A stretch of 64,000 nucleotides of DNA, taken from Bacteroidota bacterium (GTDB lineage: Bacteria > Bacteroidota > Bacteroidia > Chitinophagales > Chitinophagaceae). The stretch lies in NCBI GenBank assembly GCA_013286835.1, contig JABDEZ010000001.1, positions 2,916-66,915 on the forward strand. Direction: 5' to 3'. The notes beneath the pieces were generated by a model. It saw only the letters and a list, made by a program, of their open reading frames with translations. It had not been told where the DNA came from and did no database searches. Both the position numbers and the translations under genes were made by a program. Below, piece after piece: positions 12,300 through 64,000 of this stretch. Numbering within the stretch: the first letter of the stretch is position 1; each line of letters begins with the position of its first letter.

Positions 12300-12301
12300 C
12301 T

Positions 12302-17203: not shown

Positions 17204-18106
17204 TTATTTTAAAGTTGTTCCTAAAGTTTGTTTCCTGAAGTCCTCAGGTGTACTGCCGGTGTATTTCCTGAAGAATTTTGTGAAGTATGAATTGTCAGGG
17301 AAATTCAATTGACCGGCTATTTCAGCAACTTGCAGATCTGCATTTACCAGCAGTCTTTTAGCCTGCAGCACTATTCTATCCCGTATTATTTCTCCGGCCG
17401 GTTTCCCCAATACATCATTGCACAAAGCATTGAGGTGGTTGGGTGTTATATACAGCATGGCAGCATACTCTTTGGGTAGCTTCATTTCTGTATAGTATTG
17501 TTCCACCAGTTTCCTGAAGTTGAGGAGCACCAACCTATTGTGTTGTGGCACTTGTTTGCCTGCAGTTTTTATAGTGGTACGGCTAAGGATAATGAATAAA
17601 GAAAGTAATAGCGAACAGATCATGTCTAATGCTCCGGAACTATCATTCTGTACTTCTTTAACTATAGTACTGAGTATCTCTTCAGCCTTTACAAATGTAT
17701 CAATGGCGGGCTGCAGGACACTTTCCTGTGCAATTCCACTAAAAAATCGGAATTGATCCAGGTAATGTATGTCTGATAAGAAAGTGGAGAACAGGCCAGG
17801 TGAAAAATTAACCACATATCCATCAGGCTGTGTGGCAAAGTTCCAGGTATGTACCTGGCCGGGTGCCATAAAATAGATCTGTCCTTTTTGTATGCTGAAC
17901 TGTTCAAAATCAATAATGTGAATCCCACTACCCTTGGTAAACAATACCATATGGTAGAAAGAATGCCGATGTGGTGCCAGAAAGTGAGGGTGTGCTTCCA
18001 GGTAGGGTGCAAAAGGGGCAGCATACACCTCTTTTTTCAACTTGCTATTATCGTTATTAAAAGGCCATAGGTCGTAAACTGGTAGTATGGTGTTTCCTTT
18101 TTTCAT
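17204..18106 (-). CDS. AraC family transcriptional regulator (cupin-like N-terminal domain plus C-terminal HTH)
   Basis: 300 aa. The C-terminal region has a typical AraC dual HTH (LNALCNDVLGKPAGEIIRDRIVLQAKRLL...AEIAGQLNFPDNSYFTKFFRKYTGSTPEDFRK). Confidence 0.85.
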   Translation of the reverse strand: MKKGNTILPVYDLWPFNNDNSKLKKEVYAAPFAPYLEAHPHFLAPHRHSFYHMVLFTKGSGIHIIDFEQFSIQKGQIYFMAPGQVHTWNFATQPDGYVVNFSPGLFSTFLSDIHYLDQFRFFSGIAQESVLQPAIDTFVKAEEILSTIVKEVQNDSSGALDMICSLLLSLFIILSRTTIKTAGKQVPQHNRLVLLNFRKLVEQYYTEMKLPKEYAAMLYITPNHLNALCNDVLGKPAGEIIRDRIVLQAKRLLVNADLQVAEIAGQLNFPDNSYFTKFFRKYTGSTPEDFRKQTLGTTLK

Positions 18107-31343: not shown

Positions 31344-34300
31344 CTACCATCCTGTCTTTACCAGTTTTTCTATTTTAATTGTTGTATTATTCTTGTCGTA
31401 AACCTTTAGCAAATAAATGGCATTGGGTAAAGAACTGATGTCTATTGTTTTTGCGTCTTCAACATAGATGAGTTGCTTACCATCCATACTGCTTAGCGAT
31501 ACATTTACTTTTTGAGGTGAACTTACATTTACAAATTGTATTGCAGGGTTAGGATATAATTTTACCTGCTCTGCCACGATGTTGTTGACTCCTGTATTTA
31601 AGTCATAAACAGGACTTGTTGCGGCGCAACCTGCCACATTGGTAACAGCTACGGTGTAGCCGCCACCTTCAAGTGGATTGATGCATGCGCCACTAGCACC
31701 CAATATTGGAACGCCATTTAAAAACCATTCGTAGGTGGTATAACCTAAAGCGCATAACTGATTACCTGTTGCAGTAATAACTGGGGTTGGTGTTGCAGCG
31801 GTAGCTACCCCAACCGGCGCTGTTGTGATACTACAGCCTGCAGCAGTTGTTATTTTTACATCATAGTAACCGCCCACAGTTGCACTGTAATAGGCAGCGG
31901 TGGCACCGTTGATGTTATTACTATCTAATTGCCATTGGTACAAGTAGCTAGGGTTCAGCGCTCCACGCATCAGTAATGAGCCCCCTGTACAGATCACTTT
32001 TGGCCCAAATACAACCATTGAATCTACAGGTAATAGGTTCACAGCCACAGGTATGGTTAAAGATGATATGGCACAACTACCATTAGATACTTTTACACTA
32101 TAGTTTCCACTGGCGTTTGCTGTATATGCTGCTGCTATGGCGCCAGTTATTTCAGTTCCGTTTTGCTGCCACTGGTAAGTATAGTTATTGCCAGTAGCAG
32201 CATTCAATAATACATTGCCAGGTTCACAAACTGTTGTTGGTCCAGCTGCTGTTGCTGTAGCAGTTGGTCCTGGCGTTAAGGTTACGGCAACTGCAGTATT
32301 GGTAGTAGAGCAGCCATTTAACGCAGTTACTTTAACTGCGTAGTTGCCTGCGGTAGTTGCAGTATAGGTTATGGCGGTGGCACCCGGTATTGGGGTTCCA
32401 TTTTGTTGCCATTGGAAAGAATATCCGCTGCCCGGGTTTGCATTAAATACAATGCTGTCGCCAATGCATATGGCTGGGTTTCCGCTGTATGTTACCAGTG
32501 CTGAAGGCGCTGGCAAGGTGCTTACCGGGAAAAGAGATGAAGTATTGCTGCAGCCTGCAGTATTGGTCACTTTTACAGAATAGTTGCCAACAAGCATTGC
32601 GGTATAGGTTTGGGTATTGCCAGCAAGTACCGCACCATTTAGTGAGTATTGGTAAGCGTAATTTGCAATAGTGCCTGAATCGGCAGTAAGTGTTACACTG
32701 CTTCCGGGACAGAAATATGCTGGCCCGCCACTACTGATAACTGCAGGGGGATACGGGTTTACAGTGACGTTTAGTACTGGTGTAGTGGCATTGCAAGTGC
32801 CATCTGATTCATATACAGTATAGGCACCAGCCAGGCGTGCTGTGTAGGATGTAGAATGGGCATTACTGATGAAGACACCATTCAACTTCCATGTATAGGT
32901 AACCCCCTGAGAAACGTTGGTATTAAGCAATACAGAATCGCCAATGCAGAGATTGGTTGATCCTGCAGGTGTGATGAGTGCAGCGGGTGCAGGCAGGTGG
33001 GTAACTACTACAGTGTTGGATGTAGTGGGACAATTGTAAATATTGGTGACCACGGCATTGTAGTTCCCTGCAGGATTGGCAAAGAACGTATCCATTATAG
33101 CACTTGGGATATTACTATTATTGAACTGCCACTGATATGTGAGCCCAGCGCCGGTATTAGCAATTATGCGTACTGAATCGGTAGGGCAGAACAATGGATT
33201 GGCAGCCGCAATAATAGATGCAAGCGGTGTAGGCCTTACTGTAATTGTATCTACCTGTGTCACCCCGGCACAACCATTTGCTGTTGGCGTTACTGAAATG
33301 AATGCACTAACAGGGACAGGATTTGTATTTGTTGCTATGAAACTGATGTTATTATTGCCAGCGCTGTTGAGGCCTATTGTAGTAGTATTATTGCCCCATG
33401 TGTAAGTGGTGCCGCTTACTGCGCTGTTAAATGTAATGGCTGCAGTAGTTGCGTTACATACAGACTGCGATACAGGTGCAGAAACGATTATAGGAGTAGG
33501 GTTTGCGGTTATGGTAGCTATCACCTTTGCGCCCGGACAACCATTTGCAATAGGTATAACACTAAGCGTATCCAGTATAGGTACGGTGCCATTGTTGATA
33601 GCGTTGACTGAGGCAATATTACCTGAGCCACTTGCTGCCAGGCCTATTGCTCTGTTATTGGTCCATGAATAGGTAGTGTTGTTAACACCGCCTGTAATAG
33701 TGATTGCACCAATTGGTGCGCCATTGCATACGGGTTGGCTGGCTGGTGTTACAATTGCATTAGGGGTAGGATTAACTGTTATAGTTGCGGTTTGTACAGC
33801 GCCACTACATCCATTTGCTATAGGTATCACTGCAATAGTAGCAATGACGGGTGTACTGCCTGTATTGGTGCCGGTGAATGTATTGATGTTGGTTGTGCCA
33901 CTTGCCGCCAACCCTATAGATGGTGCACTGTTTGTCCAGCTATAAGCGGTGCCGGATACTAATGAGCCACCGAAGGGAATTGGATTAACCGTTCCTCCGT
34001 TGCAAAGTACTTGCGGGTTGATTGCGTTTGCGAATGGAGTAGGATTTATAAGGATGGTATCAAGTTTAGCATTTCCGGTACAGCCATTAGCCGTTGGTGT
34101 AACTGTTATTATTGCAGTGGCCGGCACACTGCCACTATTACTGGCGGTAAATGCAGGTATGCTGCTACTGGTGCTGCTTGCTGCCAAGCCTGCAGACAGC
34201 AGGCTGTTGGTCCATGCGAATGCTGCACCACTAACATTGCTGGTAAATAATATAGTTTGGGTTGCAGTGTTGTTACATACTATTTGGTTGCTGGGGGTAG

Positions 34301-37300
34301 CAGTAACTGTAGGTATCGGGTTAACGGTGATGGTATCCGTTTGTACAGTACCACTGCATCCATTTGCAGTAGGTGTAACAGAAATGATTGAAGTAACAGG
34401 AGCATTGCCTGTATTGGTGCCTGTAAATGTATAAGTGTTGCCGGTTCCTGATGCTGCTAACCCTGTAGCGGTTGTATTGTTTGTCCATGCAATGTTGGCG
34501 TTGCTTACATTACTTGTAAATACGATAGCGCTTGCAGCAGAGCCATTACATACAGCCTGCTTTGTGGGCGTTGCTGTAACATTTGGTGTGGGGTTAACTG
34601 TAATGACAGCATTTTGCGATAGTCCTGTGCAACCATTAGCAACGGGGCTTACTGTAATAGTAGAAATGATAGGGACATTTGATGTATTGACAGCATTAAA
34701 AGCAGCGATGGGGTTATTGGTACCACTTGCTGCAAGGTTGATTGAAGGTTGGTTGTTGACCCAGTTGAAAAGAGTATTTGTTACGTTGCTTGTAAAGCTA
34801 ATGGGCAAGGTAGGCATGCCATTACATACTGGCTGACTTGGTTGGGATACAACAACTGTAGGAGTTGGATTCACAGTTATAGTTAGCGTGTAGGGTGTGC
34901 CCATGCATGAACCTGATATAGGGTTTACTGTAACAATGGATGTGATAGGACTGTTGCCAGTGTTGGTTCCCATAAAAGGTTGTATCGTATTGGTACCTGA
35001 TGCAGCAAGGTTGGTTGCTGTATTATTGTTCGTCCACAGGAACGTTGTTACTCCAATAGTGCTGGTAAAAGTAATTTGTTGGCTCATATTGCCATTGCAT
35101 ACTGGTTGAACAGGTGGCGATGCTGTTACAGTTGGCGATGGATTTACAGTTATAGTGTCATACTGAGTTGGACCAATACATCCACCCGCAGTAGGTATCA
35201 CCGTAATAACGGATGATATAGGTACAATGCCTGTATTTACAGCAGGAAAAGATCCAATGCTGGTGGTTCCTGTTGCTGCAAGTCCTGTGCTGGTATTGTT
35301 GTTAGTCCAGTTATAAGAAGTGTTGGTTATTGTGCTTGCGAAATTTATCGGTATTACTGCTGCTGTATTACATATTGTTTGAGAAGTGGGAGTTAGCGTA
35401 ATTCCCGGAGCTGGATTTACAGTAATAGTTGTTGATTGGTTTGCACCTGTGCATCCATTAGCTACGGGTGTTACTGTTATGGTTGCGGTTACAGGTGTAC
35501 TGCCGGTGTTGGCAGTAGTAAAAGCATTTATATTAGTTGCACCGCTTGCACCGAGGTTTATAGATGTGTTATTATTTACCCAGTTGTAAGCTGTTCCTGT
35601 TACCGGTCCTGTAAAGCTTATAGGTTGTGTAGTTGAGCCGACACACAACAATTGTGGTGCGGGGCTTATTGTAACTGCAGGCGTGGGTTTAACTATTATT
35701 TGTGCAGGCATTGCAGTACCTGGGCAGCCGTTGGCCGTTGGTGTTACGGTTATAGTTGCAGTATCTGCAGTTGTACCTGTATTAAGAGCGGTAAAGGTTG
35801 CTATAGGTAATGTTCCGTTAGCTGCAAGGCCTATGGAAGTTGTATTGTTTGCCCAGGCATAGGTAGTGCCGGCAACAGTAGGTGTAAAAGTTATTGCCGT
35901 TATGGGGTTGTTGTTGCAAATAGTTTGCGTTGCCGGATTTACTGTTACTGTTGGTATAGGGTTTACTGTTATGGTAGCTATTTGCACTGTGCCTGTGCAG
36001 CCATTAGCAGTAGGAACTACTGTGATGGTATCAAGTATAGGTGCGCTGGTAGGATTGAGTGCAGTAAATGAGTTGATATTAGTAGTGCCTGTTGCGCCGA
36101 GGCTAATACTTGTATTGTTATTTGTCCAGGCATAGTTGGTATTGATTATTGAGCTGGTAAAGTTGATGGGGATTGTTGTTCCGTTGGCGCAAACTGGCTG
36201 GCTGGTAGTAGAAATAGTTACCACAGGCGTTGGGTTAACCACAAAAGATGCAGCAGAGGTAACGGTACTATCTTTAGTTATTACTACTGCAGTGTATGTG
36301 CCTGCGGCAGATGGAGCCAGGGTGGTGCTGATGGTGTTTGTAAATTCCTGTACACGATTATTGCTTTGATCTACAACAAACAAATTGCCTGCAGCATCAA
36401 TAAACATGCCGGCGGGATGCGTCACCTGGGTAGGGCTTGCTACCGTAACACCTGTAGTAGATCCCGGTGCAAATTTCTGTATGCGGTTATTGAATTGGTC
36501 ACTCACATATAGGTTACCCAGGCCATCTACAAAAACCCCTACAGGGAAGTTGAGTTGTGTAGCCCCGGAACCGTTGCCCCCGGTACCAGCCACCGTTACC
36601 CCAGTCGTAGAGCCTGGTGCGAATTTCTGTACACGGCTATTGCTGGCATCGGCAACAAACAGATTGCCTGCATTGTCTATAAACAGATCAAACGGATTGG
36701 ATAATTGTGTAGCGCCTGCACCTGAGCCCCCTGTGCCCGCCACAGTTACACCTGTAGTGGATCCCCAGGAGAATTTTTGTACACGGTTATTATTTTGATC
36801 GGCAACGTATAGATTTCCAGCAGCATCTACAACTGCTGTTTGGGGGAAAGACAACTCTGTAGCTCCTGATCCTGCACTGCCTGTACCTGCTACGGTAACA
36901 CCGGTTGTTGATCCTGGTGCAAATTTCTGTATGCGGTTGTTTGCAGCATCTGCTACATATAGATTTCCCATACCATCTACGCAAATACCCGCAGGGTTAT
37001 AAAGTTGTGTGGCGCCAGAACCTGCAACACCTGTACCTGCAATAGTAACCCCGGTTGTAGAACCTGGTGCATATTTCAGTATGCGTTGGTTCGATTGGTC
37101 GCTAACGTACAGGTTCCCGCTCACATCGGTAAATGTAAATCTTGGCAGATAAAGCTGTGTAGCGCCCAGTCCGCTTCCGCCGGTTCCTGCAACTGTTATT
37201 GCGCTAGTGCTGTAGGAATTAGTGCTGGTCTGTACAGCAGTGCCGTTAAGGCTCCATATTATTTCTACTGGGTTAAATGTGCTGTTTAATGTAAGTGTGC

Positions 37301-38525
37301 TGCCGGAGCATGCTATTCCGGTAATAGTGGGTGTGATAGCAACATGTAAGGTGTTTGCTGTTGTAGTCACGGCACCGCATGTGCCGGTAACCACGCATTG
37401 GTAAGTATATCCATTCATGGCAGCCGTGGCTCCTGTTATGGATAGTGTATTGCTGGTTGTGCCACTATATGGGGCTGATGCAGGAACATTAGTATAGGCT
37501 CCCCCGGTGCTGTATTGCCATTGGTAGGTAAGTCCAAGGCCTATTGCATTGACAAAGAACGAGGTGTTATTCCCAACCCATATGTTTTTGTCGTATGATT
37601 GGTTAATCAATGTTGTGGAAGGGTTTACAATTATTGTATCTGTTTTGGCTGTACCACTTACCGACCCGGCAACCGGTGTAACTGTAATGATAGCTGTTAT
37701 TGGTGCGGTGGTAGTATTGGTAGCTGTAAATGAAATATTGCCAGAGCCGCTTGCCGCTAACCCAATGGCTGTGTTATTGTTTGTCCAGTTATAAACTGTA
37801 CCTGATGCGGGGGACCCGGAAAATGTTATCTGCGCTATAGGGGCATTATTACATACGGTTTGGCTGGTGGGCGATTCGGTGACGGTGGGATTGCTTACCG
37901 ATACGGCTGTACTTCCGTTAAACACTAAGCTTTTTACATACACATTTCTGCTGTTGGAATTTCCTCCTGACCCTGCGTATATGAACATCCTTATTTTCAT
38001 GGTGTGGCCACTACCACATGAAATAGATGTAAAAGTTATTGCTGGAGAGATAGTTGTTGTGCCACCACTGTTTATGCCTAACGCAGAACCAAAAGGAGTG
38101 AAGGTTGTGCCACCATCAAGCGCATATGAGAAGCTGATCATCGATTGATTACTACTTCCGCTTGTTTTTATTATTGCGGAATAAGAGGATAAGGTGAGAT
38201 CATAACCAGATGTGGGCGAAACTGGAAAATCCAGGTAATAACCACCTGCCTGATCTGCTGCTGTTGGCCAGGTTACTGTGCTTTGACATTCATAGCCGCT
38301 TGAACTGTAGTTGCCAGATGAAAATTCGGTGCCTGTAGTCATCGTTCCCACACTTATTGTACTCGCCCCCGCACCTCCTGCAGCGCCGTTCCCATTACTC
38401 GTCAATGCCCAAGTGGCGGTTATTGCTCCCTGTCCGTTGACATGTATAGCGCCGAACAAGAGTAAAATAGATATGGTGATGAACTTCAGTTTTGATAAGG
38501 GTGGAGTTTGTAATTTTTTGTTCAT
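31344..38525 (-). CDS. giant secreted surface protein: N-terminal domain, 6-bladed NHL propeller, 12 PKD-like repeats, 8 Ig-like repeats, T9SS C-terminal sorting domain
   Basis: 2393-aa ORF with a signal peptide (ISILLLFGAIHVNG/Q). It has six GNL[YF]V.D..N.R[IV]QKF blades. Twelve repeats have the pattern C..(N)..I.F....Y.W.NN.T.IGLAASG...F.A.N.G..P..A.ITV.P.ANGC.G. Eight repeats have the pattern Y.WQ.NG......Y.A...G.Y.V.V.N..GC. The terminal 75 aa (nt 31347-31571), KLYPNPA...LLKVYDKNNTTIKIEKLVKTGW, are T9SS CTD-like. Confidence 0.85.
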   Translation of the reverse strand: MNKKLQTPPLSKLKFITISILLLFGAIHVNGQGAITATWALTSNGNGAAGGAGASTISVGTMTTGTEFSSGNYSSSGYECQSTVTWPTAADQAGGYYLDFPVSPTSGYDLTLSSYSAIIKTSGSSNQSMISFSYALDGGTTFTPFGSALGINSGGTTTISPAITFTSISCGSGHTMKIRMFIYAGSGGNSNSRNVYVKSLVFNGSTAVSVSNPTVTESPTSQTVCNNAPIAQITFSGSPASGTVYNWTNNNTAIGLAASGSGNISFTATNTTTAPITAIITVTPVAGSVSGTAKTDTIIVNPSTTLINQSYDKNIWVGNNTSFFVNAIGLGLTYQWQYSTGGAYTNVPASAPYSGTTSNTLSITGATAAMNGYTYQCVVTGTCGAVTTTANTLHVAITPTITGIACSGSTLTLNSTFNPVEIIWSLNGTAVQTSTNSYSTSAITVAGTGGSGLGATQLYLPRFTFTDVSGNLYVSDQSNQRILKYAPGSTTGVTIAGTGVAGSGATQLYNPAGICVDGMGNLYVADAANNRIQKFAPGSTTGVTVAGTGSAGSGATELSFPQTAVVDAAGNLYVADQNNNRVQKFSWGSTTGVTVAGTGGSGAGATQLSNPFDLFIDNAGNLFVADASNSRVQKFAPGSTTGVTVAGTGGNGSGATQLNFPVGVFVDGLGNLYVSDQFNNRIQKFAPGSTTGVTVASPTQVTHPAGMFIDAAGNLFVVDQSNNRVQEFTNTISTTLAPSAAGTYTAVVITKDSTVTSAASFVVNPTPVVTISTTSQPVCANGTTIPINFTSSIINTNYAWTNNNTSISLGATGTTNINSFTALNPTSAPILDTITVVPTANGCTGTVQIATITVNPIPTVTVNPATQTICNNNPITAITFTPTVAGTTYAWANNTTSIGLAANGTLPIATFTALNTGTTADTATITVTPTANGCPGTAMPAQIIVKPTPAVTISPAPQLLCVGSTTQPISFTGPVTGTAYNWVNNNTSINLGASGATNINAFTTANTGSTPVTATITVTPVANGCTGANQSTTITVNPAPGITLTPTSQTICNTAAVIPINFASTITNTSYNWTNNNTSTGLAATGTTSIGSFPAVNTGIVPISSVITVIPTAGGCIGPTQYDTITVNPSPTVTASPPVQPVCNGNMSQQITFTSTIGVTTFLWTNNNTATNLAASGTNTIQPFMGTNTGNSPITSIVTVNPISGSCMGTPYTLTITVNPTPTVVVSQPSQPVCNGMPTLPISFTSNVTNTLFNWVNNQPSINLAASGTNNPIAAFNAVNTSNVPIISTITVSPVANGCTGLSQNAVITVNPTPNVTATPTKQAVCNGSAASAIVFTSNVSNANIAWTNNTTATGLAASGTGNTYTFTGTNTGNAPVTSIISVTPTANGCSGTVQTDTITVNPIPTVTATPSNQIVCNNTATQTILFTSNVSGAAFAWTNSLLSAGLAASSTSSSIPAFTASNSGSVPATAIITVTPTANGCTGNAKLDTILINPTPFANAINPQVLCNGGTVNPIPFGGSLVSGTAYSWTNSAPSIGLAASGTTNINTFTGTNTGSTPVIATIAVIPIANGCSGAVQTATITVNPTPNAIVTPASQPVCNGAPIGAITITGGVNNTTYSWTNNRAIGLAASGSGNIASVNAINNGTVPILDTLSVIPIANGCPGAKVIATITANPTPIIVSAPVSQSVCNATTAAITFNSAVSGTTYTWGNNTTTIGLNSAGNNNISFIATNTNPVPVSAFISVTPTANGCAGVTQVDTITVRPTPLASIIAAANPLFCPTDSVRIIANTGAGLTYQWQFNNSNIPSAIMDTFFANPAGNYNAVVTNIYNCPTTSNTVVVTHLPAPAALITPAGSTNLCIGDSVLLNTNVSQGVTYTWKLNGVFISNAHSTSYTARLAGAYTVYESDGTCNATTPVLNVTVNPYPPAVISSGGPAYFCPGSSVTLTADSGTIANYAYQYSLNGAVLAGNTQTYTAMLVGNYSVKVTNTAGCSNTSSLFPVSTLPAPSALVTYSGNPAICIGDSIVFNANPGSGYSFQWQQNGTPIPGATAITYTATTAGNYAVKVTALNGCSTTNTAVAVTLTPGPTATATAAGPTTVCEPGNVLLNAATGNNYTYQWQQNGTEITGAIAAAYTANASGNYSVKVSNGSCAISSLTIPVAVNLLPVDSMVVFGPKVICTGGSLLMRGALNPSYLYQWQLDSNNINGATAAYYSATVGGYYDVKITTAAGCSITTAPVGVATAATPTPVITATGNQLCALGYTTYEWFLNGVPILGASGACINPLEGGGYTVAVTNVAGCAATSPVYDLNTGVNNIVAEQVKLYPNPAIQFVNVSSPQKVNVSLSSMDGKQLIYVEDAKTIDISSLPNAIYLLKVYDKNNTTIKIEKLVKTGW
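33231..36239 (-). repeat. 11 tandem PKD-like repeats, period about 91 aa (273 bp), within the giant CDS
   Basis: The W(T/A/V/G)NN motif recurs at aa 800, 891, 982, 1073, 1164, 1255, 1347, 1438, 1530, 1621 and 1710. One more copy lies at aa 246, upstream of the NHL region. Confidence 0.8.
36339..37199 (-). repeat. six NHL-type beta-propeller blades (about 47 aa each) within the giant CDS
   Basis: aa 443-729. The repeated unit is APGSTTGVTVAGTG..GSGATQL..P.G...D..GNLYVADQ.NNR[IV]QKF. Confidence 0.8.
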
Positions 38526-49322: not shown

Positions 49323-49385
49323 ATATGGAGGTAACCATTTCCCAGCCTGTCAATAAATCATATATTGCTATCCAATTATTGCAAC

Positions 49386-49850
49386 ATGGCTAATAATTAT
49401 ACCCAACTATATATTCATTTTGTTTTTGCGGTACAGTATAGGGCGGCAATGCTCAATAGTGCCTGGGATGATAGGCTTCGGTTATATATTTCCGCTATTG
49501 TTCAAAACAATGGACATAAAATGTTGGCCATAAATAATATGCCTGATCACCTTCATTGCCTGGTAGGATTAAATCCCAGTCAATCTATTTCAGATCTTAT
49601 GAATGTGGTTAAGGGTGATTCTGCAGAGTGGATCAATAAAGAAAATTTGGTCTCTCATAAATTTCAATGGCAGAAGGGTTACGGAGCTTTCAGTCATTCA
49701 AAATCGCAGGTGAACACCGTTGTTCAGTATATTCATAACCAGCAGGAGCATCATCGTAAGGTGGTTTTTATTGAAGAATATAAAAAGATATTGACCGATT
49801 TTGGAATCGAATACGATGAACGTTATATTTTCACGTTACCTGCTGAATAA
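49386..49850 (+). CDS. IS200/Y1-type HUH transposase homolog, REP-associated tyrosine transposase (RAYT)-like
   Basis: 154 aa from ATG 49386 (the track lists TTG 49365). It has the HUH motif PDHLHCLVG, the Tyr motif FQWQKGYGAFSHS and C-terminal YIHNQQEHHRK, typical of COG1943-like proteins. It is a single gene flanked by palindromic repeat modules rather than IS ends. Confidence 0.75.
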   Translation: MANNYTQLYIHFVFAVQYRAAMLNSAWDDRLRLYISAIVQNNGHKMLAINNMPDHLHCLVGLNPSQSISDLMNVVKGDSAEWINKENLVSHKFQWQKGYGAFSHSKSQVNTVVQYIHNQQEHHRKVVFIEEYKKILTDFGIEYDERYIFTLPAE

Positions 49851-50205
49851 TTGGTGCGGGGCGGCCCTACAGGCCGCATGATACTCCTTGTTTGTTATTG
49901 CTACAAAGCTGGGCCCTCTACAAGGGCACTGTTATGTGGAAGTGTTTAGAGTGGGTGTTGTATTAACCCCACATTGCGAGTGTAATTGGTACGGGGGCGG
50001 CCCTACAGGCCGCATGATATTCCTTGTTTGTTATTGCTACAAAGCTGGGCCCTCTACAAGGGCACTGTTATGTGGAAGTGTTTGGAGTGGGTGTTGTATT
50101 AACCCCACATTGCCGAGTGTAATTGGTACGGGGGGGCACTACAGGCCGCATATTATAGTACGGCCTTGTATCCTACAAAGCGGTGCCCTCTACAAGGGCA
50201 TGACA
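49851..50205 (+). repeat. tandem 136-bp REP-like composite modules (2 full plus 1 diverged partial)
   Basis: Hairpin gcggccCTACAggccgc occurs at 49861-49877 and 49997-50013, with a degenerate copy at 50133-50149. Hairpin gccctCTACAagggc occurs at 49913-49927, 50049-50063 and 50185-50199. All spacings are exactly 136 bp. Confidence 0.85.
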
Positions 50206-56727: not shown

Positions 56728-58002
56728 ATGAGTAAACTAAGCCAGCTTGCAGAAACACTGATAGGATCAGAAATTGTGCGTTTAGGTAACGACATTAGTA
56801 ATCGTATCAGTCGTGGGGAGAAGATATATAATTACACGATCGGTGATTTTAATCCTGATATTTTTCCGATCCCCAAAGATCTGGAAGACTGCATAGTTAA
56901 GGCATACCGTGATAAACGTACCAACTATCCGCCTGCCGATGGTATATTGAAACTACGTACAGGTGTTGCTGACTTTATTAAAGAGGCAGAAGGAATAGAA
57001 TATGCACCTAATGAAATATTAATAGCCAGTGGTGGCAGACCCCTGATTTATGCATTGTTCCGCACTATTGTTGACAGGGGCGATAAAGTGATATATGCCG
57101 TGCCATCGTGGAACAACAACCACTACGTACATATAAATGAAGGGACGCATTGTGTAATAAAGACCAGTCCTGAAAATGATTTCATGCCTACTGCGGAAGA
57201 TATAGCACCACACCTTGCAGGCGCCACATTACTTTGCCTCTGTACCCCGCAAAACCCTACCGGGACAACACTGGGCAGGGAAGAGATGGAAAAGATATGT
57301 GACCTTGTACTGGCAGAAAATGCAAGCCGGAAGCCAGAAGAAAGGAAGCTGTATGTGATGTTTGACCAAATGTACTTTAAGCTTACATACGGTACTACGG
57401 TACACCATAACCCTGTAGCGCTACGCCCTGCTATGAAGGAGTACAGCATTCTTGTGGATGGTATATCTAAAGTATTTGCAGCTACCGGTGTGCGTATAGG
57501 CTGGGCTTTGGGTCCTGTGAATGTGATTGCTAAAATGAAGTCGTTATTGAGCCACGTAGGCGCCTGGGCACCTATGGCAGAGCAGGTTGGTGTAGCAGAG
57601 TTCTTTCAAAATAAGGAAGGTATTAAAACATTCCTCAACCACTTTAAAGCAGAGCTTGAAGAGCGTTTGTGGAGTATATATAATGGTTTTAAAGCACTGA
57701 AAGAAAAAGGATATATGGTTGATGCCATAGCCCCGCAAGCTGCCATATACCTAACCATAAAATTTGATCTGAAAGGCAATACCACTGGGGATACACAGCT
57801 GGCTACACAAGCTGATGTAACGCAATACCTGTTGGATAAAGCAAAGCTTGCGGTAGTACCATTCTATGCTTTTGGTGCGCCACATGATTCGCCATGGTAT
57901 CGCCTTAGCATCGGCACCTGCAGAAAAGAGGATATTCCTGAAATGCTGGGCAGCCTGGAGCATGCGCTGGAACAATTAAATGTATCCGTAACAGTATCAT
58001 AG
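56728..58002 (+). CDS. pyridoxal-phosphate-dependent aminotransferase, class I/II fold
   Basis: 424 aa with the PLP-lysine context DGISKVFAATGVRIGW, plus TPQNPTG and the YPPADG motif. Confidence 0.8.
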   Translation: MSKLSQLAETLIGSEIVRLGNDISNRISRGEKIYNYTIGDFNPDIFPIPKDLEDCIVKAYRDKRTNYPPADGILKLRTGVADFIKEAEGIEYAPNEILIASGGRPLIYALFRTIVDRGDKVIYAVPSWNNNHYVHINEGTHCVIKTSPENDFMPTAEDIAPHLAGATLLCLCTPQNPTGTTLGREEMEKICDLVLAENASRKPEERKLYVMFDQMYFKLTYGTTVHHNPVALRPAMKEYSILVDGISKVFAATGVRIGWALGPVNVIAKMKSLLSHVGAWAPMAEQVGVAEFFQNKEGIKTFLNHFKAELEERLWSIYNGFKALKEKGYMVDAIAPQAAIYLTIKFDLKGNTTGDTQLATQADVTQYLLDKAKLAVVPFYAFGAPHDSPWYRLSIGTCRKEDIPEMLGSLEHALEQLNVSVTVS

Positions 58003-58024
58003 CCACAATTTAAATACACAAAGC

Positions 58025-58061
58025 AAAACGCCCCAGGAGCAATCCTGGGGCGTTTTGTTTT
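58025..58061 (+). terminator. rho-independent terminator after the aminotransferase gene
   Basis: aaaacgccccagga / gcaa / tcctggggcgtttt is a 14-bp stem followed by gtttt. Confidence 0.85.
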
Positions 58062-58344: not shown

Positions 58345-58564
58345 TGCTGGTTAATAACTTGTTTTGGGATTGTTAATCAAATCTTTATTGGCGGTTAATG
58401 GTATGTAAGCTATCGGTTAACAATTTTTAAACTGCTGGTTAAACATTGCCAAATAACTCGTTATCAATTTCTAAGCAGATGGTTAATGATTTCTAAATAG
58501 CAGGTTAACAGCTTACAAATTAGTGGTTAACGCATATAGAAGTTTTCTGTTAAGATGAAAAGAT
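58345..58564. repeat. ten phased 22-bp degenerate tandem repeats, each with a (G)GTTAA core; candidate regulatory array upstream of the giant gene at 58607
   Basis: Hexamer starts are 58349 GGTTAA, 58371 TGTTAA, 58393 GGTTAA, 58415 GGTTAA, 58437 GGTTAA, 58459 CGTTAT, 58481 GGTTAA, 58503 GGTTAA, 58525 GGTTAA and 58548 TGTTAA. The spacing is 22 bp eight times, then 23 bp. Confidence 0.8.
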
Positions 58565-58606
58565 GTTGAGATTTGCCCTAAATCTTAACATCATAAATCG
58601 CTGTTT

Positions 58607-61600
58607 ATGCGCAGATTGCTATCTCTTTTTATTGTCTTATTAGTTGCGGCTGCTCCCCTGCGAGCCTGCAACATTAATATAAGCGCCAATGTAACGTCGA
58701 TCTGCGCAGGAAGCCAGATCACCTTCACGGGAGTCATTACAAATGCTTCAAATGCAACCACATTCCAATGGGAAAAGAATGGCGTTGCAATGACTGGAAC
58801 AGGAAATAGTGGTGGGCTTTCCTCTCCTGGCAATGGCACTTTTACATACACCGCCGGTGGATTCAGCAATGGAGATGTTATTACCTGTTACATAACTGAA
58901 CCAGCTTCGAGTTTCACTACAACGAGTTCCGGAATTACTGTATCAGTAAATAACCAGGCGCCCATCACTTCCAGTTTTAACGGAACCTCTATCTCCTCTG
59001 GAAATGTTATCTGGTTTAATTCTGTAGTTAGTGTGACTGGTTCTCAGAGTTACCCAATGACCATATATTATACGAACCAAACTATATCAAGTTCCGGATT
59101 TTCAATTTCAGCACCGGATGCAGAACTAATTCTGGACAATACATATTCTATAGCTACCACTACGTATAACGGAACAATGTGGGTTACAACTGCCCCTCCC
59201 AATCAATCAGGCAATTACTTTTTAGCAGGTTACGGTTATACCGCGCCATCTACAATATCTGGTTCTCCAAACATTACATGGAATGGTACTTTTCTTTGTT
59301 CACAAGCCGGTGTTACTTTGAACTGGCAATGGGCAGCGGCAGTTTATACATCTTTTAATTCTAATCTCGCGAATCTGGGTGTGAAAGCCTCTTATTGTTC
59401 TTCTTGTTCTGTCTATTCAAATTCTGATCATGCAGGTACACCTGAAAGCTATAAAGCGAGTGTGATAGGCGGAGCACGTGGTGGTGGTGGTTCTAACTAT
59501 ACCGGAAGTTATTCTGGTACTGGTTCTGTAACCACTTGCGGAGCGGTTACACCTTCGGTTATTATTTCCGGTACTTCTTCTATCTGTTCAGGAGCATCGG
59601 TGACTTTTACTGCTACCCCAACCAATGGCGGTTCTTCTCCGGCTTATCAATGGAAAAAGAACGGTAATAATGTAGGCACTAATAGTGCTACTTATACCGA
59701 TGCATCTTTGGCTAATAGTGACGCTATCACATGTGTTTTGACCAGCAGCCTTACTTCTGCAGCCCCTACTACTGCAACCAGCAATACTATTACAGAAACG
59801 GTGAATAGTAATGTTACCCCTTCGGTATCAATAGCAGCAAGTCCAGGTTCATCAATATGCTCAGGTACATCCGTAACATTTACGGCTACCCCAACAAACG
59901 GCGGTACCCCCAGCTATCAATGGAAAAAGAACGGTACTAATGTTGGTACCAACAGTACTACTTATACGGATGCAGCACTTAATAATAATGATGTTATCAC
60001 TTGCGTGATGACCAGTACTGCAGCATGTGCAACAACAAGTACAGCAACCAGCAATGGAGTAACAATGACGGTTACCCCAACTGTAACACCTTCTGTATCC
60101 ATTTCTGGTAATTCGTCAATATGTGCTGGTACATCCGTAACATTTACGGCTACCCCTACAAATGGTGGTACACCAAGCTACCAATGGAAAAAGAATGGCA
60201 CTACCGTAGGCACTAATAGCGCTACATATACAGATGCGGGCTTAACAAATGGCAATACGATCACTTGTGTGATGACAAGCACTGCATCATGTGCCAGTAC
60301 AACTACAGCGACAAGTAATACCATTACTGAAGTTGTAACCAGCAATGTTACGCCATCTGTATCAATAGCCGCTAGTCCTGGGTCATCAATATGTTCAGGC
60401 ACATCAGTAACGTTTACCGCTACGCCAACGAATGGTGGTACACCAAGCTATCAATGGAAGAAGAACGGTACTAATGTTGGAACGAATAGCACTACTTATA
60501 CAGACGCTTCTTTGAACAATAATGATGCGATCACTTGCGTAATGACCAGTACAGCGTCATGTGCAACTACTACAACAGCAATAAGTAATACGATCACTGA
60601 GACTGTAACAAATAATGTCACTCCATCAGTATCCATTTCGAGCAATTCATCTATTTGTGCAGGCACATCGGTAACTTTTACTGCTACACCAACCAACGGA
60701 GGTACTCCAAGCTACCAGTGGAAAAAGAATGGTACAAATGTAGGTACGAACAGTACCACATATACCGATGCCGCTTTAAATAATAATGATACGATCACTT
60801 GTGTGATGACCAGTACTGCAGCTTGTGCAACTACTACAACCGCTACAAGTAACACGATCACGGAGACTGTAACAAATAATGTTACGCCATCTGTATCAAT
60901 AGCCGCTAGTCCTGGATCATCAATATGTTCTGGTACCTCAGTAACGTTTACAGCTACACCAACCAACGGAGGTACACCAAGCTACCAATGGAAAAAGAAC
61001 GGCACAAATGTAGGTACGAACAGCGCTACCTATACCGATGCCGCTTTAAATAATAATGATGCGATCACTTGTGTAATGACGAGCACCGCAAACTGTGTTA
61101 CAACAACAACTGCAACAAGCGGTACTATTACAATGACTGTAACAAATAATGTTACCCCTTCCATATCTATTTCAGGTAATTCATCTATATGTGCAGGTAC
61201 TTCAGTGACTTTTACAGCTACGCCAACCAACGGAGGTACACCAAGCTATCAGTGGAAGAAGAATGGTAGCAATGTAGGAACGAACAGCGCTACTTATACA
61301 GATGCATCTTTAAATAACAATGATGCGATCACTTGTATTATGACTAGTACAGCGTCATGTGCAACTACTACAACAGCAACAAGTAATACGATCACTGAGA
61401 CCGTAACAAATAATGCCACTCCATCAGTATCAATAGCAGCTAACCCCGGTTCTGCAATTTGCGCTGGCACATCAGTAACGTTTACTGCTACCCCAACAAA
61501 CGGTGGTACTCCAAGCTACCAGTGGAAGAAGAACGGCAGCAATGCAGGTACAAACAGCGCTACTTATACAGATGCGAGCCTTAATAATAACGATGTTATT

Positions 61601-64000
61601 ACTTGTGTGATGACCAGCACGGCAACTTGTGCAAGCACTACAACTGCTACGAGCAACGCTGTAACGATGACCATAACGAATAATGTTACTCCTTCTGTTT
61701 CAATTTCAGGTAATTCATCTATATGTGCAGGTGCTTCAGTAACCTTTACTGCTACCCCAACCAACGGCGGTACGCCAAGCTATCAGTGGAAAAAGAACGG
61801 TAGTAATGTAGGCGCTAATGCTGCAACTTATACAGATGCGGGCTTAACAAATGGCAATACGATCACTTGTGTGATAACAAGCACTGCATCATGTGCCAGT
61901 ACAACTACAGCGACAAGTAATACTATTACTGAGACCGTAACAAACAATGTTACCCCATCTGTATCAATAGCTGCAAACCCCGGTTCTGCAATTTGCTCTG
62001 GCACTTCGGTAACATTTACTGCTACACCTACCAACGGCGGTACACCAAGCTACCAATGGAAAAAGAACGGTACTAACGTAGGTACTAATAGTGCTACCTA
62101 CACAGATGTTTCTTTAAACAATAATGATGCGATTATGTGTGTAATGACCAGCACAGCTGCGTGCGCTACAACAACCACAGCTACCAGCAGTACCATTACT
62201 ATGAATATAACTAATGCAGTTACTCCATCAGTATCAATAACGGCTAACCCGGGTAACAATATCTGCTCAGGTTCACCAGTAACATTTACAGCTACCCCAA
62301 CCAACGGCGGTACGCCAAGCTACCAATGGAAGAAGAACGGCACTAATGTAGGTACGAACAGTAATACATATACAGACAATGGTCTTAATAACAATGATGT
62401 GATCACTTGTGTGATGACCAGCACTGCATCGTGTGCCAGCACTACAACCGTTACAAGCAATGCGATCACCATGAATGTGAGCAACACTACTGCTACACAG
62501 CCAGGCAACTTCACGGTATCATCTGGTACAACTTATGATGGCCAGACAGGCGTTGTTTATACTGTGCCTAATATACCAGGCACTACCTATACCTGGAGCT
62601 ACAGTGGTACAGGCGCAACGATAAATGGAACAGGCAACAGTGTTACAGTAGATTTTAGTACTGCAGCTACAAGCGGCACACTAAGTGTAACAGCTACAAC
62701 AGGATCATGCAGCAGCCCATCGGCAGCCCGTACAATACCTGTAACAGTAAAACCCTACCTGACATGGACATGTGGTACAAACAACGACTGGAATACAGCA
62801 AGCAACTGGGATGGTGGTTTTGTACCATATAGCACAATAAGTGTGCTGGTACCTGCAAACACATCTTGCCAGCCCAATATATGCAGTGGTTCAGCTAATG
62901 TGAATAACATGACCGTTAATAATGGCGCTACGGTAAACATATGCTGCCCTAACAGCCTTACAGTAAATGGAGATATGACCATCAATGGTTCAATACTGGG
63001 ATGTGGTGAGGTTATTGTACCAGGCAGTGTATGCCACGTAATATATGGTAACGGGCGTATAGACAATTTTGAACTGAACAACAGTTGTGGTGGCATCATC
63101 AATGCAGGTGATACGCTGCACATAGGGGATACCTATACACCTACTCTTGGTGTAATGACTGTAAATGGTGAGCTGGAACTTTTGTCAGACTCAACAGTAA
63201 CAGCATCGATACTTACTCATCCTGGTGTATGTAATACATACATAGTGGGTGATGTGATCTGCGATAAATTTATACATGGCGGCCGCAGGGCGTTCCGTTT
63301 CCTGGGTCATCCATTCAGCACGTCAATACCGCTAAGCCAACTGGAATACACAGTGGATATAACAGGCCAGGGTGGTGCTGCTAATGGATTTACAACAACA
63401 GTTACCGACAATCCTTCAGCCTTCTGGTACAATACACTTACCGGTAACGGATCTACAGTAGATGACAGCACCGGCTGGATACCATTTACAAGTACCAATG
63501 GTGTTGGTGCTAATGCATGGAATGCATTTGAAGGGATCAGGTTGTTTATGCGTGGCAGCAAAGGTCAGGGACTGGGATGTGGTGTTTGCGTGCCAGATGC
63601 AATAACCATAAAAATGCACAGCACTATTAATGAGTGCGACCAGACAGTAACACTTGGTGTGAACAATAATGTTGGTTTCAATTTTATAGCCAATCCTTAT
63701 CCATCATCAATAGACCTGAGCAAGATAACAACAGGCAGCTCTATAGGTGCTAACTTCAATGTGTGGGATCCTAATCAGGGCCTGGTAGGCGCGTATGTGG
63801 AACAGCCATTTAACATATCATACATCTTACCAGCTTACAGTGCTTTCTTTACCACTTGTAACAGTAATACAGGCAACACCCTTACATTCCACGAAACAGA
63901 TAAAACCGTTGCAGCGCCTACAGGCAATCTGTTCAAGACAACAGGCATGGGTAATGACATAGTACAACTGCGCATACTAAGCAACAACGACTCATTATCG
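58607..64000 (+). CDS. giant secreted repeat (Ig-like) surface protein, 3' end beyond the window; not present in the supplied ORF track
   Basis: From ATG 58607 I translated 58607-60460 (start through the fourth repeat) and 62480-64000 by eye and found no in-frame stop. The window holds exactly 1798 codons of this frame. The six repeat units between 60460 and 62480 were checked through the regular in-frame spacing of the QWKKNG motif rather than codon by codon. The signal peptide is MRRLLSLFIVLLVAAAPLRA. Eleven tandem units fit VTPSVSI..(N/S)..SIC.GTSVTFTATPTNGGTPSYQWKKNGTNVGTNS.TYTD..LNNND.ITCVMTSTA.CATTTTATSN.IT. The C-terminal part continues past 64000. Confidence 0.85.
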   Translation, partial: MRRLLSLFIVLLVAAAPLRACNINISANVTSICAGSQITFTGVITNASNATTFQWEKNGVAMTGTGNSGGLSSPGNGTFTYTAGGFSNGDVITCYITEPASSFTTTSSGITVSVNNQAPITSSFNGTSISSGNVIWFNSVVSVTGSQSYPMTIYYTNQTISSSGFSISAPDAELILDNTYSIATTTYNGTMWVTTAPPNQSGNYFLAGYGYTAPSTISGSPNITWNGTFLCSQAGVTLNWQWAAAVYTSFNSNLANLGVKASYCSSCSVYSNSDHAGTPESYKASVIGGARGGGGSNYTGSYSGTGSVTTCGAVTPSVIISGTSSICSGASVTFTATPTNGGSSPAYQWKKNGNNVGTNSATYTDASLANSDAITCVLTSSLTSAAPTTATSNTITETVNSNVTPSVSIAASPGSSICSGTSVTFTATPTNGGTPSYQWKKNGTNVGTNSTTYTDAALNNNDVITCVMTSTAACATTSTATSNGVTMTVTPTVTPSVSISGNSSICAGTSVTFTATPTNGGTPSYQWKKNGTTVGTNSATYTDAGLTNGNTITCVMTSTASCASTTTATSNTITEVVTSNVTPSVSIAASPGSSICSGTSVTFTATPTNGGTPSYQWKKNGTNVGTNSTTYTDASLNNNDAITCVMTSTASCATTTTAISNTITETVTNNVTPSVSISSNSSICAGTSVTFTATPTNGGTPSYQWKKNGTNVGTNSTTYTDAALNNNDTITCVMTSTAACATTTTATSNTITETVTNNVTPSVSIAASPGSSICSGTSVTFTATPTNGGTPSYQWKKNGTNVGTNSATYTDAALNNNDAITCVMTSTANCVTTTTATSGTITMTVTNNVTPSISISGNSSICAGTSVTFTATPTNGGTPSYQWKKNGSNVGTNSATYTDASLNNNDAITCIMTSTASCATTTTATSNTITETVTNNATPSVSIAANPGSAICAGTSVTFTATPTNGGTPSYQWKKNGSNAGTNSATYTDASLNNNDVITCVMTSTATCASTTTATSNAVTMTITNNVTPSVSISGNSSICAGASVTFTATPTNGGTPSYQWKKNGSNVGANAATYTDAGLTNGNTITCVITSTASCASTTTATSNTITETVTNNVTPSVSIAANPGSAICSGTSVTFTATPTNGGTPSYQWKKNGTNVGTNSATYTDVSLNNNDAIMCVMTSTAACATTTTATSSTITMNITNAVTPSVSITANPGNNICSGSPVTFTATPTNGGTPSYQWKKNGTNVGTNSNTYTDNGLNNNDVITCVMTSTASCASTTTVTSNAITMNVSNTTATQPGNFTVSSGTTYDGQTGVVYTVPNIPGTTYTWSYSGTGATINGTGNSVTVDFSTAATSGTLSVTATTGSCSSPSAARTIPVTVKPYLTWTCGTNNDWNTASNWDGGFVPYSTISVLVPANTSCQPNICSGSANVNNMTVNNGATVNICCPNSLTVNGDMTINGSILGCGEVIVPGSVCHVIYGNGRIDNFELNNSCGGIINAGDTLHIGDTYTPTLGVMTVNGELELLSDSTVTASILTHPGVCNTYIVGDVICDKFIHGGRRAFRFLGHPFSTSIPLSQLEYTVDITGQGGAANGFTTTVTDNPSAFWYNTLTGNGSTVDDSTGWIPFTSTNGVGANAWNAFEGIRLFMRGSKGQGLGCGVCVPDAITIKMHSTINECDQTVTLGVNNNVGFNFIANPYPSSIDLSKITTGSSIGANFNVWDPNQGLVGAYVEQPFNISYILPAYSAFFTTCNSNTGNTLTFHETDKTVAAPTGNLFKTTGMGNDIVQLRILSNNDSLS
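59546..62485 (+). repeat. 11 tandem coding repeats of 264/270 bp arranged as a 534-bp two-unit super-repeat
   Basis: The QW(K/E)KNG codon block starts at 59648, 59918, 60182, 60452, 60716, 60986, 61250, 61520, 61784, 62054 and 62324. The spacings are 270, 264, 270, 264, 270, 264, 270, 264, 270, 270. Confidence 0.9.

Follow-up and report, generated by a model that had tools for sequence, protein, structure and literature searches.

SaeR, a protein of the OmpR family, binds GTTAAN6GTTAA, and many of its sites are pairs of a strong and a weak half-site (PMC5083920). PhoP of Streptomyces recognizes 11-nt direct-repeat units in operators of up to six units, or up to eight in another Streptomyces, where it binds core units and extends cooperatively to units of poor conservation (PMC2275107). 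AgrA, which belongs to the LytTR family, recognizes direct repeats that immediately precede promoters whose elements are suboptimal (PMC4227749), and BldC forms head-to-tail filaments on direct repeats whose number varies (PMC5859096). Here we describe an array of ten 22-bp direct repeats in a 64-kb stretch of contig JABDEZ010000001.1 (assembly GCA_013286835.1; the whole stretch is called the window below). The array lies upstream of a gene for a giant secreted adhesin-like protein, and three further transcription units of its adhesin island are preceded by similar arrays.

Very little is known about transcription control of the cargo and adhesins of the type IX secretion system (T9SS) in environmental Bacteroidota, and cis-regulatory motifs for the abundant response regulators of this phylum are almost unmapped. 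The array was noticed in an earlier reading of the DNA sequence (the original prediction), whose author knew of no Bacteroidota regulatory element with this architecture. Our literature search on Bacteroidota likewise found no description of the element, nor of the regulation of PID-CTERM and T9SS adhesin islands in Chitinophagaceae.

Ten phased repeats upstream of the giant adhesin gene

The array occupies window positions 58345-58566 and consists of ten units, nine at exact 22-bp steps and the tenth after a step of 23 bp. Seven units carry the hexamer GGTTAA (starting at 58349, 58393, 58415, 58437, 58481, 58503 and 58525), and the others carry TGTTAA (58371 and 58548) or CGTTAT (58459). In three units the core extends to the palindrome GTTAAC (58416, 58504 and 58526). 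The in-phase GTTA cores start at 58350, 58372, 58394, 58416, 58438, 58460, 58482, 58504 and 58526, and the ATG of the giant adhesin gene (58607) begins 43 bp past the array end. When rechecked in the sequence, the coordinates and cores of the original prediction were all correct, and the tract was non-coding and strictly phased, as had been claimed. The units are quite dissimilar outside the core: mean identity between them is 54%, or 41% without the hexamer, and Tandem Repeats Finder reported just 1.9 copies (58467-58508).

GGTTAA occurs 20 times in the window, and seven of these occurrences fall inside this 180-bp stretch. The array has eight GTTAA in exact phase, a number that never arose in simulated DNA of like composition; the maximum was three in 200 simulated 64-kb sequences with the dinucleotide content of the array region itself. 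When the window was scanned for 5-mers recurring with any period of 15-33, whatever their sequence, a single array was detected, which was this one. Applied to ~650 kb from 80 related Chitinophagaceae loci, the same scan returned only the orthologous array and one unrelated repeat with a 25-bp period. Chains of at least four GTTA in ~720 kb of control DNA were solely the arrays of this analysis, and three chance chains were seen there, each of length 3 and at least two of them within coding sequence. The ten repeats are real and their phasing is far beyond chance.

Conservation in orthologous loci

Three independent assemblies of the same strain had identical intergenic DNA. In addition, the orthologous intergenic region was compared in three diverged relatives, whose aminotransferases (encoded upstream of the array) show 94, 90 and 83% identity to that of the window, and an array was present upstream of the orthologous giant adhesin in all of them. 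The number of units is 10 in the window, 9 in L124, 10 in L128 and 7+1 (that is, 8) in L127 (L-numbers denote loci retrieved for comparison). All steps in these arrays are 22 bp, with the last step of +23 kept. The order aminotransferase-giant adhesin is also kept in the three relatives, with a PID-CTERM gene next where the contig extends that far. In a multiple alignment the arrays could be matched unit for unit, with precisely one 22-bp unit missing in L124, and the intergenic sequence 5' of the array could hardly be aligned. Unit number changes between species, by clean indels of whole units. The tenth unit, which lies inside the predicted promoter, is kept in the four orthologous arrays (TGTTAA in three and GGTTAG in one).

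Identity among orthologous units depends strongly on position, being 100% for GTTA, 93% for the adjacent A, 74% for a second element of the unit described below, and ~52% for the ten least conserved spacer positions. Thus, selection acts on a core of 4-6 bp and on its phase and in this way maintains the array. It is kept although the N-terminus of the adhesin has diverged to 43% (window versus L124). Among 80 farther Chitinophagaceae loci, found by a metagenome search with the aminotransferase (identity at most 74%), none had the array, the giant gene or a PID-CTERM gene downstream. Thus, the element at this locus is confined to a narrow Flavipsychrobacter-like subclade.

Arrays at other transcription units

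Further arrays were sought in loci encoding paralogues of the C-terminal module of the adhesin and of the PID-CTERM protein. The resulting set comprises 16 arrays in eight loci, belonging to four types of transcription unit. The genomes with arrays are those of the window strain, GCA_031292525.1 and the ERZ26273096 and SRR28211907 bins. All 16 arrays have the same orientation as the gene that they precede, and successive cores are mostly 22 bp apart, in a few cases 23 bp and in none 21 bp. The three types other than the giant-gene arrays (types 2-4 in Table 1) have 3-5 units each, and the promoter-internal extra unit is absent from them, being found in the giant-gene arrays only. The type 2 array of L121, a contig of the window strain, would fall ~1.1 kb past the window end. 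In genome ERZ26273096 the giant-gene array is located on one contig and the other three arrays on another, which suggests that the reader of the arrays acts in trans. The search with the C-terminal 600 aa of the adhesin returned mostly shorter paralogues that share this module.

Structure of the unit

Sequence logos were built from 37 orthologous units and from the 84 units of all types. The consensus of the unit is t-K-G-T-T-A-A-Y-R-a-n-T-T-n-Y-W-A-A-n, that is, a strong K-GTTA-A-Y (positions 5-11) followed 11 bp downstream by a weak T-T-n-Y-W-A-A element. This second element repeats the first in the same orientation but in degenerate form. Similarity to TGTTAA is greatest at an offset of +11 (3.4 of 6 matches), and a value as high was obtained in 0 of 2000 within-unit permutations, whose P-values are optimistic because orthologous arrays are not independent samples. 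The G that is invariant in the first element occurs in only 17 of 84 second elements. The position 3' of GTTA is A in 65 of the 84 units, and the next one is T in 41 and C in 31. The original prediction took the whole hexamer as the core. Of this, only GTTA is strictly invariant (37 of 37 units from four lineages), accompanied by K at -1 and A at +1.

Register of the arrays with a predicted promoter

The promoter consensus of Bacteroidota consists of a -33 element (TTTG) and a -7 element (TAnnTTTG) separated by 19-21 nucleotides. The original prediction found no -7 box between the array and the start codon. This does not hold, as a box with one mismatch, GAGATTTG, is present immediately past the array and is conserved in orthologues (Table 1). 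Moreover, a box of the form [TG]AnnTTT[GA] is located exactly at +42 from the last in-phase GTTA start in all 16 arrays. The versions observed are GAGATTTG in the window and GACATTTG, GACTTTTG, GAAGTTTG, TACTTTTG and TACTTTTA elsewhere; the orthologues of the giant gene have kept the box as GACATTTG, and the PID-CTERM arrays have a perfect -7 box, TACTTTTG. Since the -7 box played no part in finding the arrays, the +42 register is an independent observation. As a negative control, unrelated GTTA arrays with a 22-bp period in other bacteria were inspected, and among the matches listed the +42 box was found in 0 of 161.

As the tetramer at +18 to +21, 10 of the 16 arrays carry TTTC, TTTA, TTGT or TTTG, and another three carry a T-rich sequence close to these (ATTC, TTAT or CTTC). 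From the promoter consensus we infer that TTTC is the -33 element in the window. The last in-phase unit ends 1-2 bp before this tetramer, as judged from the predicted promoter elements, and the distance from the -7 box to the ATG is 31 bp in the window. Transcription is predicted to start at ~58579-58583. The predicted elements correspond to the -33/-7 (sigma-A) type of Bacteroidota promoter; a scan of the window with the sigma-70 consensus was uninformative for promoters of this phylum. We also considered an inverted repeat over the predicted -7 box as a second operator. This candidate was rejected as it is not kept in orthologues (score of 13 in the window versus at most 5.5 in three orthologous promoters).

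Possible mechanism and alternative explanations

The array is directional, phase-locked, registered with the promoter and conserved, and it is repeated at four transcription units. The original prediction of a multi-site operator bound by a protein is supported by the conservation in orthologues, by the apparent selection on core and phase, by the three further transcription units and by the promoter register in 16 of 16 arrays. We consider it reasonably probable, on these sequence comparisons, that the arrays are head-to-tail multi-site operators of one regulon, recognized by an activator that binds direct repeats, such as a response regulator of the LytTR or OmpR/PhoB type. One DNA-binding protein acting in trans would read the direct repeats head to tail, one unit each, and the bound protein would spread cooperatively along the array. 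The promoter-proximal protomer, next to the poor -33 element, might then recruit or stabilize the sigma-A RNA polymerase. The number of units (8-10 at the giant adhesin gene, 3-5 at the others) could set a gene-specific threshold or steepness of induction. With 22 bp the unit is ~1 bp longer than two helical turns, and each bound protein would be slightly rotated relative to the previous one. The chain of proteins would thereby wind slowly around the DNA, approximately one turn per ten units, which suggests a wrapped or filament-like complex. Activation is the most economical reading because the array stops against a weak -33 element. With regard to the family of the regulator, our expectation is divided roughly among three options: LytTR and a group comprising AraC or any other family are equally possible, each short of an even chance, and OmpR/PhoB is slightly less so.

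Several points weigh against this reading. The activator sign is deduced from the position of the array and the weak -33 element only. No gene for a response regulator or histidine kinase was present in the 64-kb window or in any locus that we retrieved. The arrays of four types could partly share a common ancestry as duplicated promoter modules, and the permutation P-values given above are optimistic. No array precedes the other T9SS cargo genes of the window, at 23227-25614 and 31344-38525, and the array is therefore not a general T9SS signal. The second half-site never comes close to the first and has the key G, invariant in the first, in just 17 of 84 units, which is odd if one domain reads both half-sites, as in an OmpR/PhoB model. 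For LytTR, the 5' triplet of the family consensus is unmatched, and the known sites are pairs bound by one dimer, whereas the arrays have 3-10 units, including the odd numbers 3, 5 and 9.

The main rival to an activator is a silencer, in which a polymerizing repressor covers both the DNA upstream of the promoter and the tenth unit inside it and keeps the giant adhesin, a costly product, off until relieved. A protein bound to the conserved extra core between the -33 and -7 elements of giant-gene arrays would clash with RNA polymerase, a long array with a period slightly over two turns suits wrapping, and silencing is frequent for variable surface adhesins. However, the three other array types have a similar architecture without the promoter-internal unit, the arrays end right before a poor -33 element, where activators classically bind, and repressors rarely need 3-10 upstream sites; we therefore think a silencer unlikely. 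Somewhat less likely still is a regulator of another fold, either an AraC/XylS monomer whose two helix-turn-helix motifs read GGTTAA and YnAAA ~11-12 bp apart, or an oligomerizing protein similar to BldC or Xis. AraC-type half-sites repeat at ~21 bp, and the two elements of each unit differ systematically, as would be expected for two different reading heads. The only regulator gene in the window (17204-18106) is indeed of the AraC type, but it is 40 kb from the array, and its product has a cupin ligand domain, as is typical of regulators that act locally on metabolic genes. The head-to-tail filaments of BldC on variable direct repeats provide a precedent for the oligomerizing variant (PMC5859096), but the unit of BldC is ~9 bp rather than 22 bp, and no small DNA-binding protein was found near any array.

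The alternating TTAA and TnAAA blocks, ~11 bp apart, could also act as phased AT-rich sequences, through DNA curvature or in an UP-like manner and with no dedicated sequence-specific protein, as upstream curvature is able to stimulate promoters. We regard this as very improbable: the period is 22 bp and never 21 and thus drifts from helical phase, and the G, which is present in all 37 units of the unselected orthologous set, together with the fixed order of GTTA speaks for base-specific readout rather than curvature. The original prediction had also offered a repeat-number-variable switch, i.e., a contingency locus in which slippage or recombination frequently changes the number of units. Unit counts do differ between lineages (10, 9, 10 and 8 at the giant gene; 5 versus 4 at the second adhesin) by clean whole-unit indels, but these differences are seen between species only, and the three same-strain assemblies are identical. 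In addition, units that are 54% identical (41% outside the core, and 1.9 copies by Tandem Repeats Finder) are far too unlike for slipped-strand mispairing, and gain or loss of a unit leaves the promoter spacing unaltered because the distance from the last unit to the promoter is constant. This part of the original prediction was accordingly abandoned, its chance of being correct appearing even smaller than that of curvature. We place least credence of all in a decaying minisatellite or chance repeat without function, or in iterons or a partition site of an integrated replicon. Many bacteria have 22-bp tandem repeats with GTTAA, and 22-bp iterons are classic in plasmids, but conservation concentrated on 4-6 of 22 positions across species is not a product of neutral decay. 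The iteron or partition variant was rejected on the basis of housekeeping flanks (leuA-leuC-leuD-leuB-aminotransferase), the absence of rep and par genes there, and four types of promoter-linked array in register. A structured RNA was rejected as well, since the whole window had no Rfam match and the predicted promoter lies 3' of the array. The GTTAAC cores, being partly palindromic, and the strain-specific inverted repeat account for the fold z-score of -3.2.

Genomic context

The names of the closest aminotransferase homologues indicate that the window, which is chromosomal DNA, belongs to a Flavipsychrobacter-like bacterium of the Chitinophagaceae. Upstream of the array are leuA-leuC-leuD-leuB and then a class I/II aminotransferase gene (56728-58002), whose terminator hairpin (Table 1) marks the end of the upstream transcription unit; an equivalent hairpin was found in orthologous loci. 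The giant adhesin is 2013 aa long in the same-strain contig L121, where its C-terminal T9SS type A sorting domain, beyond the window end, is included. It has internal repeats of 270 bp (90 aa) at 59570-62436. The giant gene is followed by a gene for a 76-aa PID-CTERM mini-protein and then by that for a second T9SS adhesin with pAdhesive_15 and PKD domains. A search for regulators near the arrays, including small unannotated open reading frames, found nothing, and no array was adjoined by a regulator gene. Specifically, no gene with a Trans_reg_C, Response_reg or HisKA domain was detected in the window or in the island loci retrieved; such adjacency is not obligatory.

Table 1. Features of the array region and of the related array types (positions refer to the window)
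Feature	Position	Strand	Remarks
Terminator hairpin (intrinsic) of the aminotransferase gene	58024..58057	+	15-pair stem with 9 GC pairs, T run
Nine phased 22-bp units, head to tail	58345..58542	+	Based on phase, chance tests, logo and conservation in orthologues
Tenth unit, inside the promoter	58543..58566	+	TGTTAA at 58548, step of +23; between the -33-like and -7 elements
Weak -33-like element, TTTC	58544..58547	+	18 bp after the last in-phase GTTA start; 20-bp spacer to the -7 box
Inverted repeat, 13 bp, GATGTTGAGATTT / AAATCTTAACATC	58562..58592		Over the predicted -7 box and transcription start; window strain only
Putative -7 box, GAGATTTG	58568..58575	+	7/8 match to TAnnTTTG; 42 bp after the last in-phase GTTA start (58526)
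Giant adhesin gene, 5' part	58607..64000	+	Secreted adhesin-like protein with immunoglobulin (Ig)/PKD repeats; continues past the window end
Array type 2: T9SS adhesin with pAdhesive_15/PKD			Units: L121, 5; L213, 5; L124, 4; L212, 4
Array type 3: PID-CTERM mini-protein gene			Units: L209, 5; L212, 5; L213, 4; L217, 4
Array type 4: secreted protein of 212-229 aa, then Ig-repeat T9SS protein of 1285 aa			Units: L209, 4; L212, 4; L213, 3; L217, 4

Additional observations

The length of the giant adhesin varies by lineage, being 2013, 2096, 2110 and 2462 aa in L121, L124, L127 and L213, respectively. Between the window and L124, identity is 43% in the N-terminal ~127 aa, 91% in the C-terminal 400 aa and 94% in the adjoining aminotransferase. 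The diverged N-terminus suggests diversifying selection or recombination at the exposed end of the protein.

The PID-CTERM mini-proteins (76-83 aa) consist of a signal peptide, a Gly-rich stretch and the PID-CTERM sorting domain (NF046080), with little else. They are repeatedly encoded 3' of T9SS proteins that share a common C-terminal module of ~600 aa. Their genes were found in L121 (17972-18202), L209 (2781-3011 and 3490-3729), L210 (9222-9473), L212 (10001-10240) and L213 (4845-5075, 9460-9693 and 10001-10231). Our literature search returned nothing on PID-CTERM. The predicted 5' leader of the array-driven PID-CTERM genes contains a conserved hairpin, TGATAAC-N8-GTTATCA (L209, 3433-3454; also L212, L213 and L217; c+55..c+77 of the PID-CTERM arrays). 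In L217 the two arms have changed in a compensatory manner (TGATAG...CTATCA), a hint that the RNA stem is functional. In L210 (5709-5760; GCA_031292525.1), three GTTAAC palindromes with irregular spacing of 19 and 21 bp lie ~250 bp upstream of an NHL-type T9SS paralogue, 3' of which is a PID-CTERM gene.

A scan of a genome collection for four GTTAA at 22-bp spacing returned at least 120 loci. Among the matches listed, these were mostly ordinary tandem repeats and unrelated Bacteroidales arrays with palindromic cores, and none had the +42 box. The latter arrays are intergenic, have 4-7 units with a 22-bp period and occur in several loci per genome in Prevotella, Bacteroidaceae and other metagenome-assembled genomes (mostly Bacteroidales). 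Their cores are mostly palindromic (AATGGTTAACCATT, GAGTTAACTC and TGAGGTTAACCTCA), and one family has ACACGTTAAGTTTGCCAAC. They were observed in L001, L002, L005, L031, L033, L099, L105; L042, L106, L109, L115; L025, L090, L117; and further in L009, L012, L017, L019, L022, L029, L044, L049, L074, L087 and L110. These arrays are often located between convergent genes and have no promoter box at +42, and they seem to represent another family of repeat elements.

Two other regions of the window deserve mention. At 49365-50200 there is a gene for an IS200-like Y1 transposase (161 aa), directly followed on its 3' side by a 136-bp tandem repeat in 2.2-2.6 copies; this block is possibly a RAYT/REP-like element. 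It is a strain-specific insertion, as it is missing from the orthologous site of L124, where the gene for methionyl-tRNA synthetase (MetRS) and that for a 515-aa protein are separated by 95 bp. At 8291-14221, three tandem paralogues (668, 673 and 639 aa), each with DUF3857 and a transglutaminase-like core, are encoded downstream of a 2713-aa GH94/glycosyltransferase protein (30-8171) that resembles cyclic beta-1,2-glucan synthase.

Significance of the arrays

A tandem direct-repeat operator beside a weak promoter is a well-known device, and the mechanism is probably conventional. New aspects are the size of the arrays, which reach ten 22-bp units, their strict register at +42 with a -33/-7 promoter of the Bacteroidota type, and the definition of a regulon. 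Few regular operator arrays known from bacterial promoters would be as long as ten tandem units. A single regulon would join the giant Ig-repeat adhesin, the second adhesin, the PID-CTERM mini-proteins and further Ig-repeat proteins. The element is sharply defined and tractable, with an invariant GTTA every 22 bp, 42 bp to the -7 box and 3-10 units, and the array is a direct bait for finding the regulator. The natural series of 3, 4, 5, 8, 9 and 10 units is suited to studies of how site number relates to cooperativity and threshold. It is also conceivable, although we would be cautious about it, that the arrays belong to a new regulatory system of Bacteroidota, in which a protein, possibly of an uncharacterized family, polymerizes head to tail over up to ~220 bp as a slowly winding filament that ends in exact register with the -33/-7 elements, and in which the number of units (3-10) would act as an evolvable "dial", giving each gene of a T9SS adhesin/PID-CTERM island its own induction threshold.

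Comparison with known operators

Regulators of the LytTR family are abundant in Bacteroidota. Their sites are 9-bp direct repeats with a spacer of 12-13 bp and a period of 21-22 bp, and the cores include ACAGTTAAG and TACGTTAAT. The arrays resemble the LytTR sites of AgrA P2/P3, PlnC/D and ComE in the period of the direct repeats (22-23 bp here), in the core GTT-A-A and in the location just upstream of suboptimal promoters. When aligned with the family consensus [TA][AC][CA]GTTN[AG][TG], GTT-A-A-Y is matched, but the 5' positions are n-T-K rather than W-M-M. A further difference is the weak conserved element within what would be the spacer.

The operators of the OmpR/PhoB family (the pho boxes of E. 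coli and the sites of PhoP, SaeR and OmpR, the last with F1-F2-F3) appear to share with the arrays an organization in head-to-tail repeats with an 11-bp sub-period, giving a 22-bp unit. The SaeR half-site, GTTAA, is identical to the array core, and the alternation of strong "core" repeats with weak "extension" repeats is another common feature; for PhoP, spreading is proposed to be cooperative. As at the predicted promoter described here, OmpR/PhoB sites abut or replace the upstream promoter element. In contrast, the giant-gene arrays reach 9-10 units (18-20 half-sites), compared with the 2-8 direct-repeat units cited for this family, they are combined with a -33/-7 promoter of the Bacteroidota type, two-component genes are absent from their vicinity, and the second half-site is systematically degenerate. 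Neither LytTR nor OmpR/PhoB agrees with the arrays in every feature compared.

Two further systems show partial similarity. In BldC and Xis filaments the number of repeats also varies with the target promoter, and the directional head-to-tail layout implies cooperative oligomerization, but BldC is a 68-aa protein that reads a ~9-bp repeat, AATTnnnnC, whereas the unit described here is 22 bp long, has another motif and was not accompanied by such a protein in the loci searched. Plasmid iterons, such as the 22-bp repeats of the R6K gamma ori, and ParR-parC resemble the arrays in having ~7-10 direct repeats with a period of ~22 or 11 bp and cooperative binding. They differ in their replicon or partition context, which is absent here, while the arrays described in this work are linked to promoters in four copies and are built of far more degenerate units.

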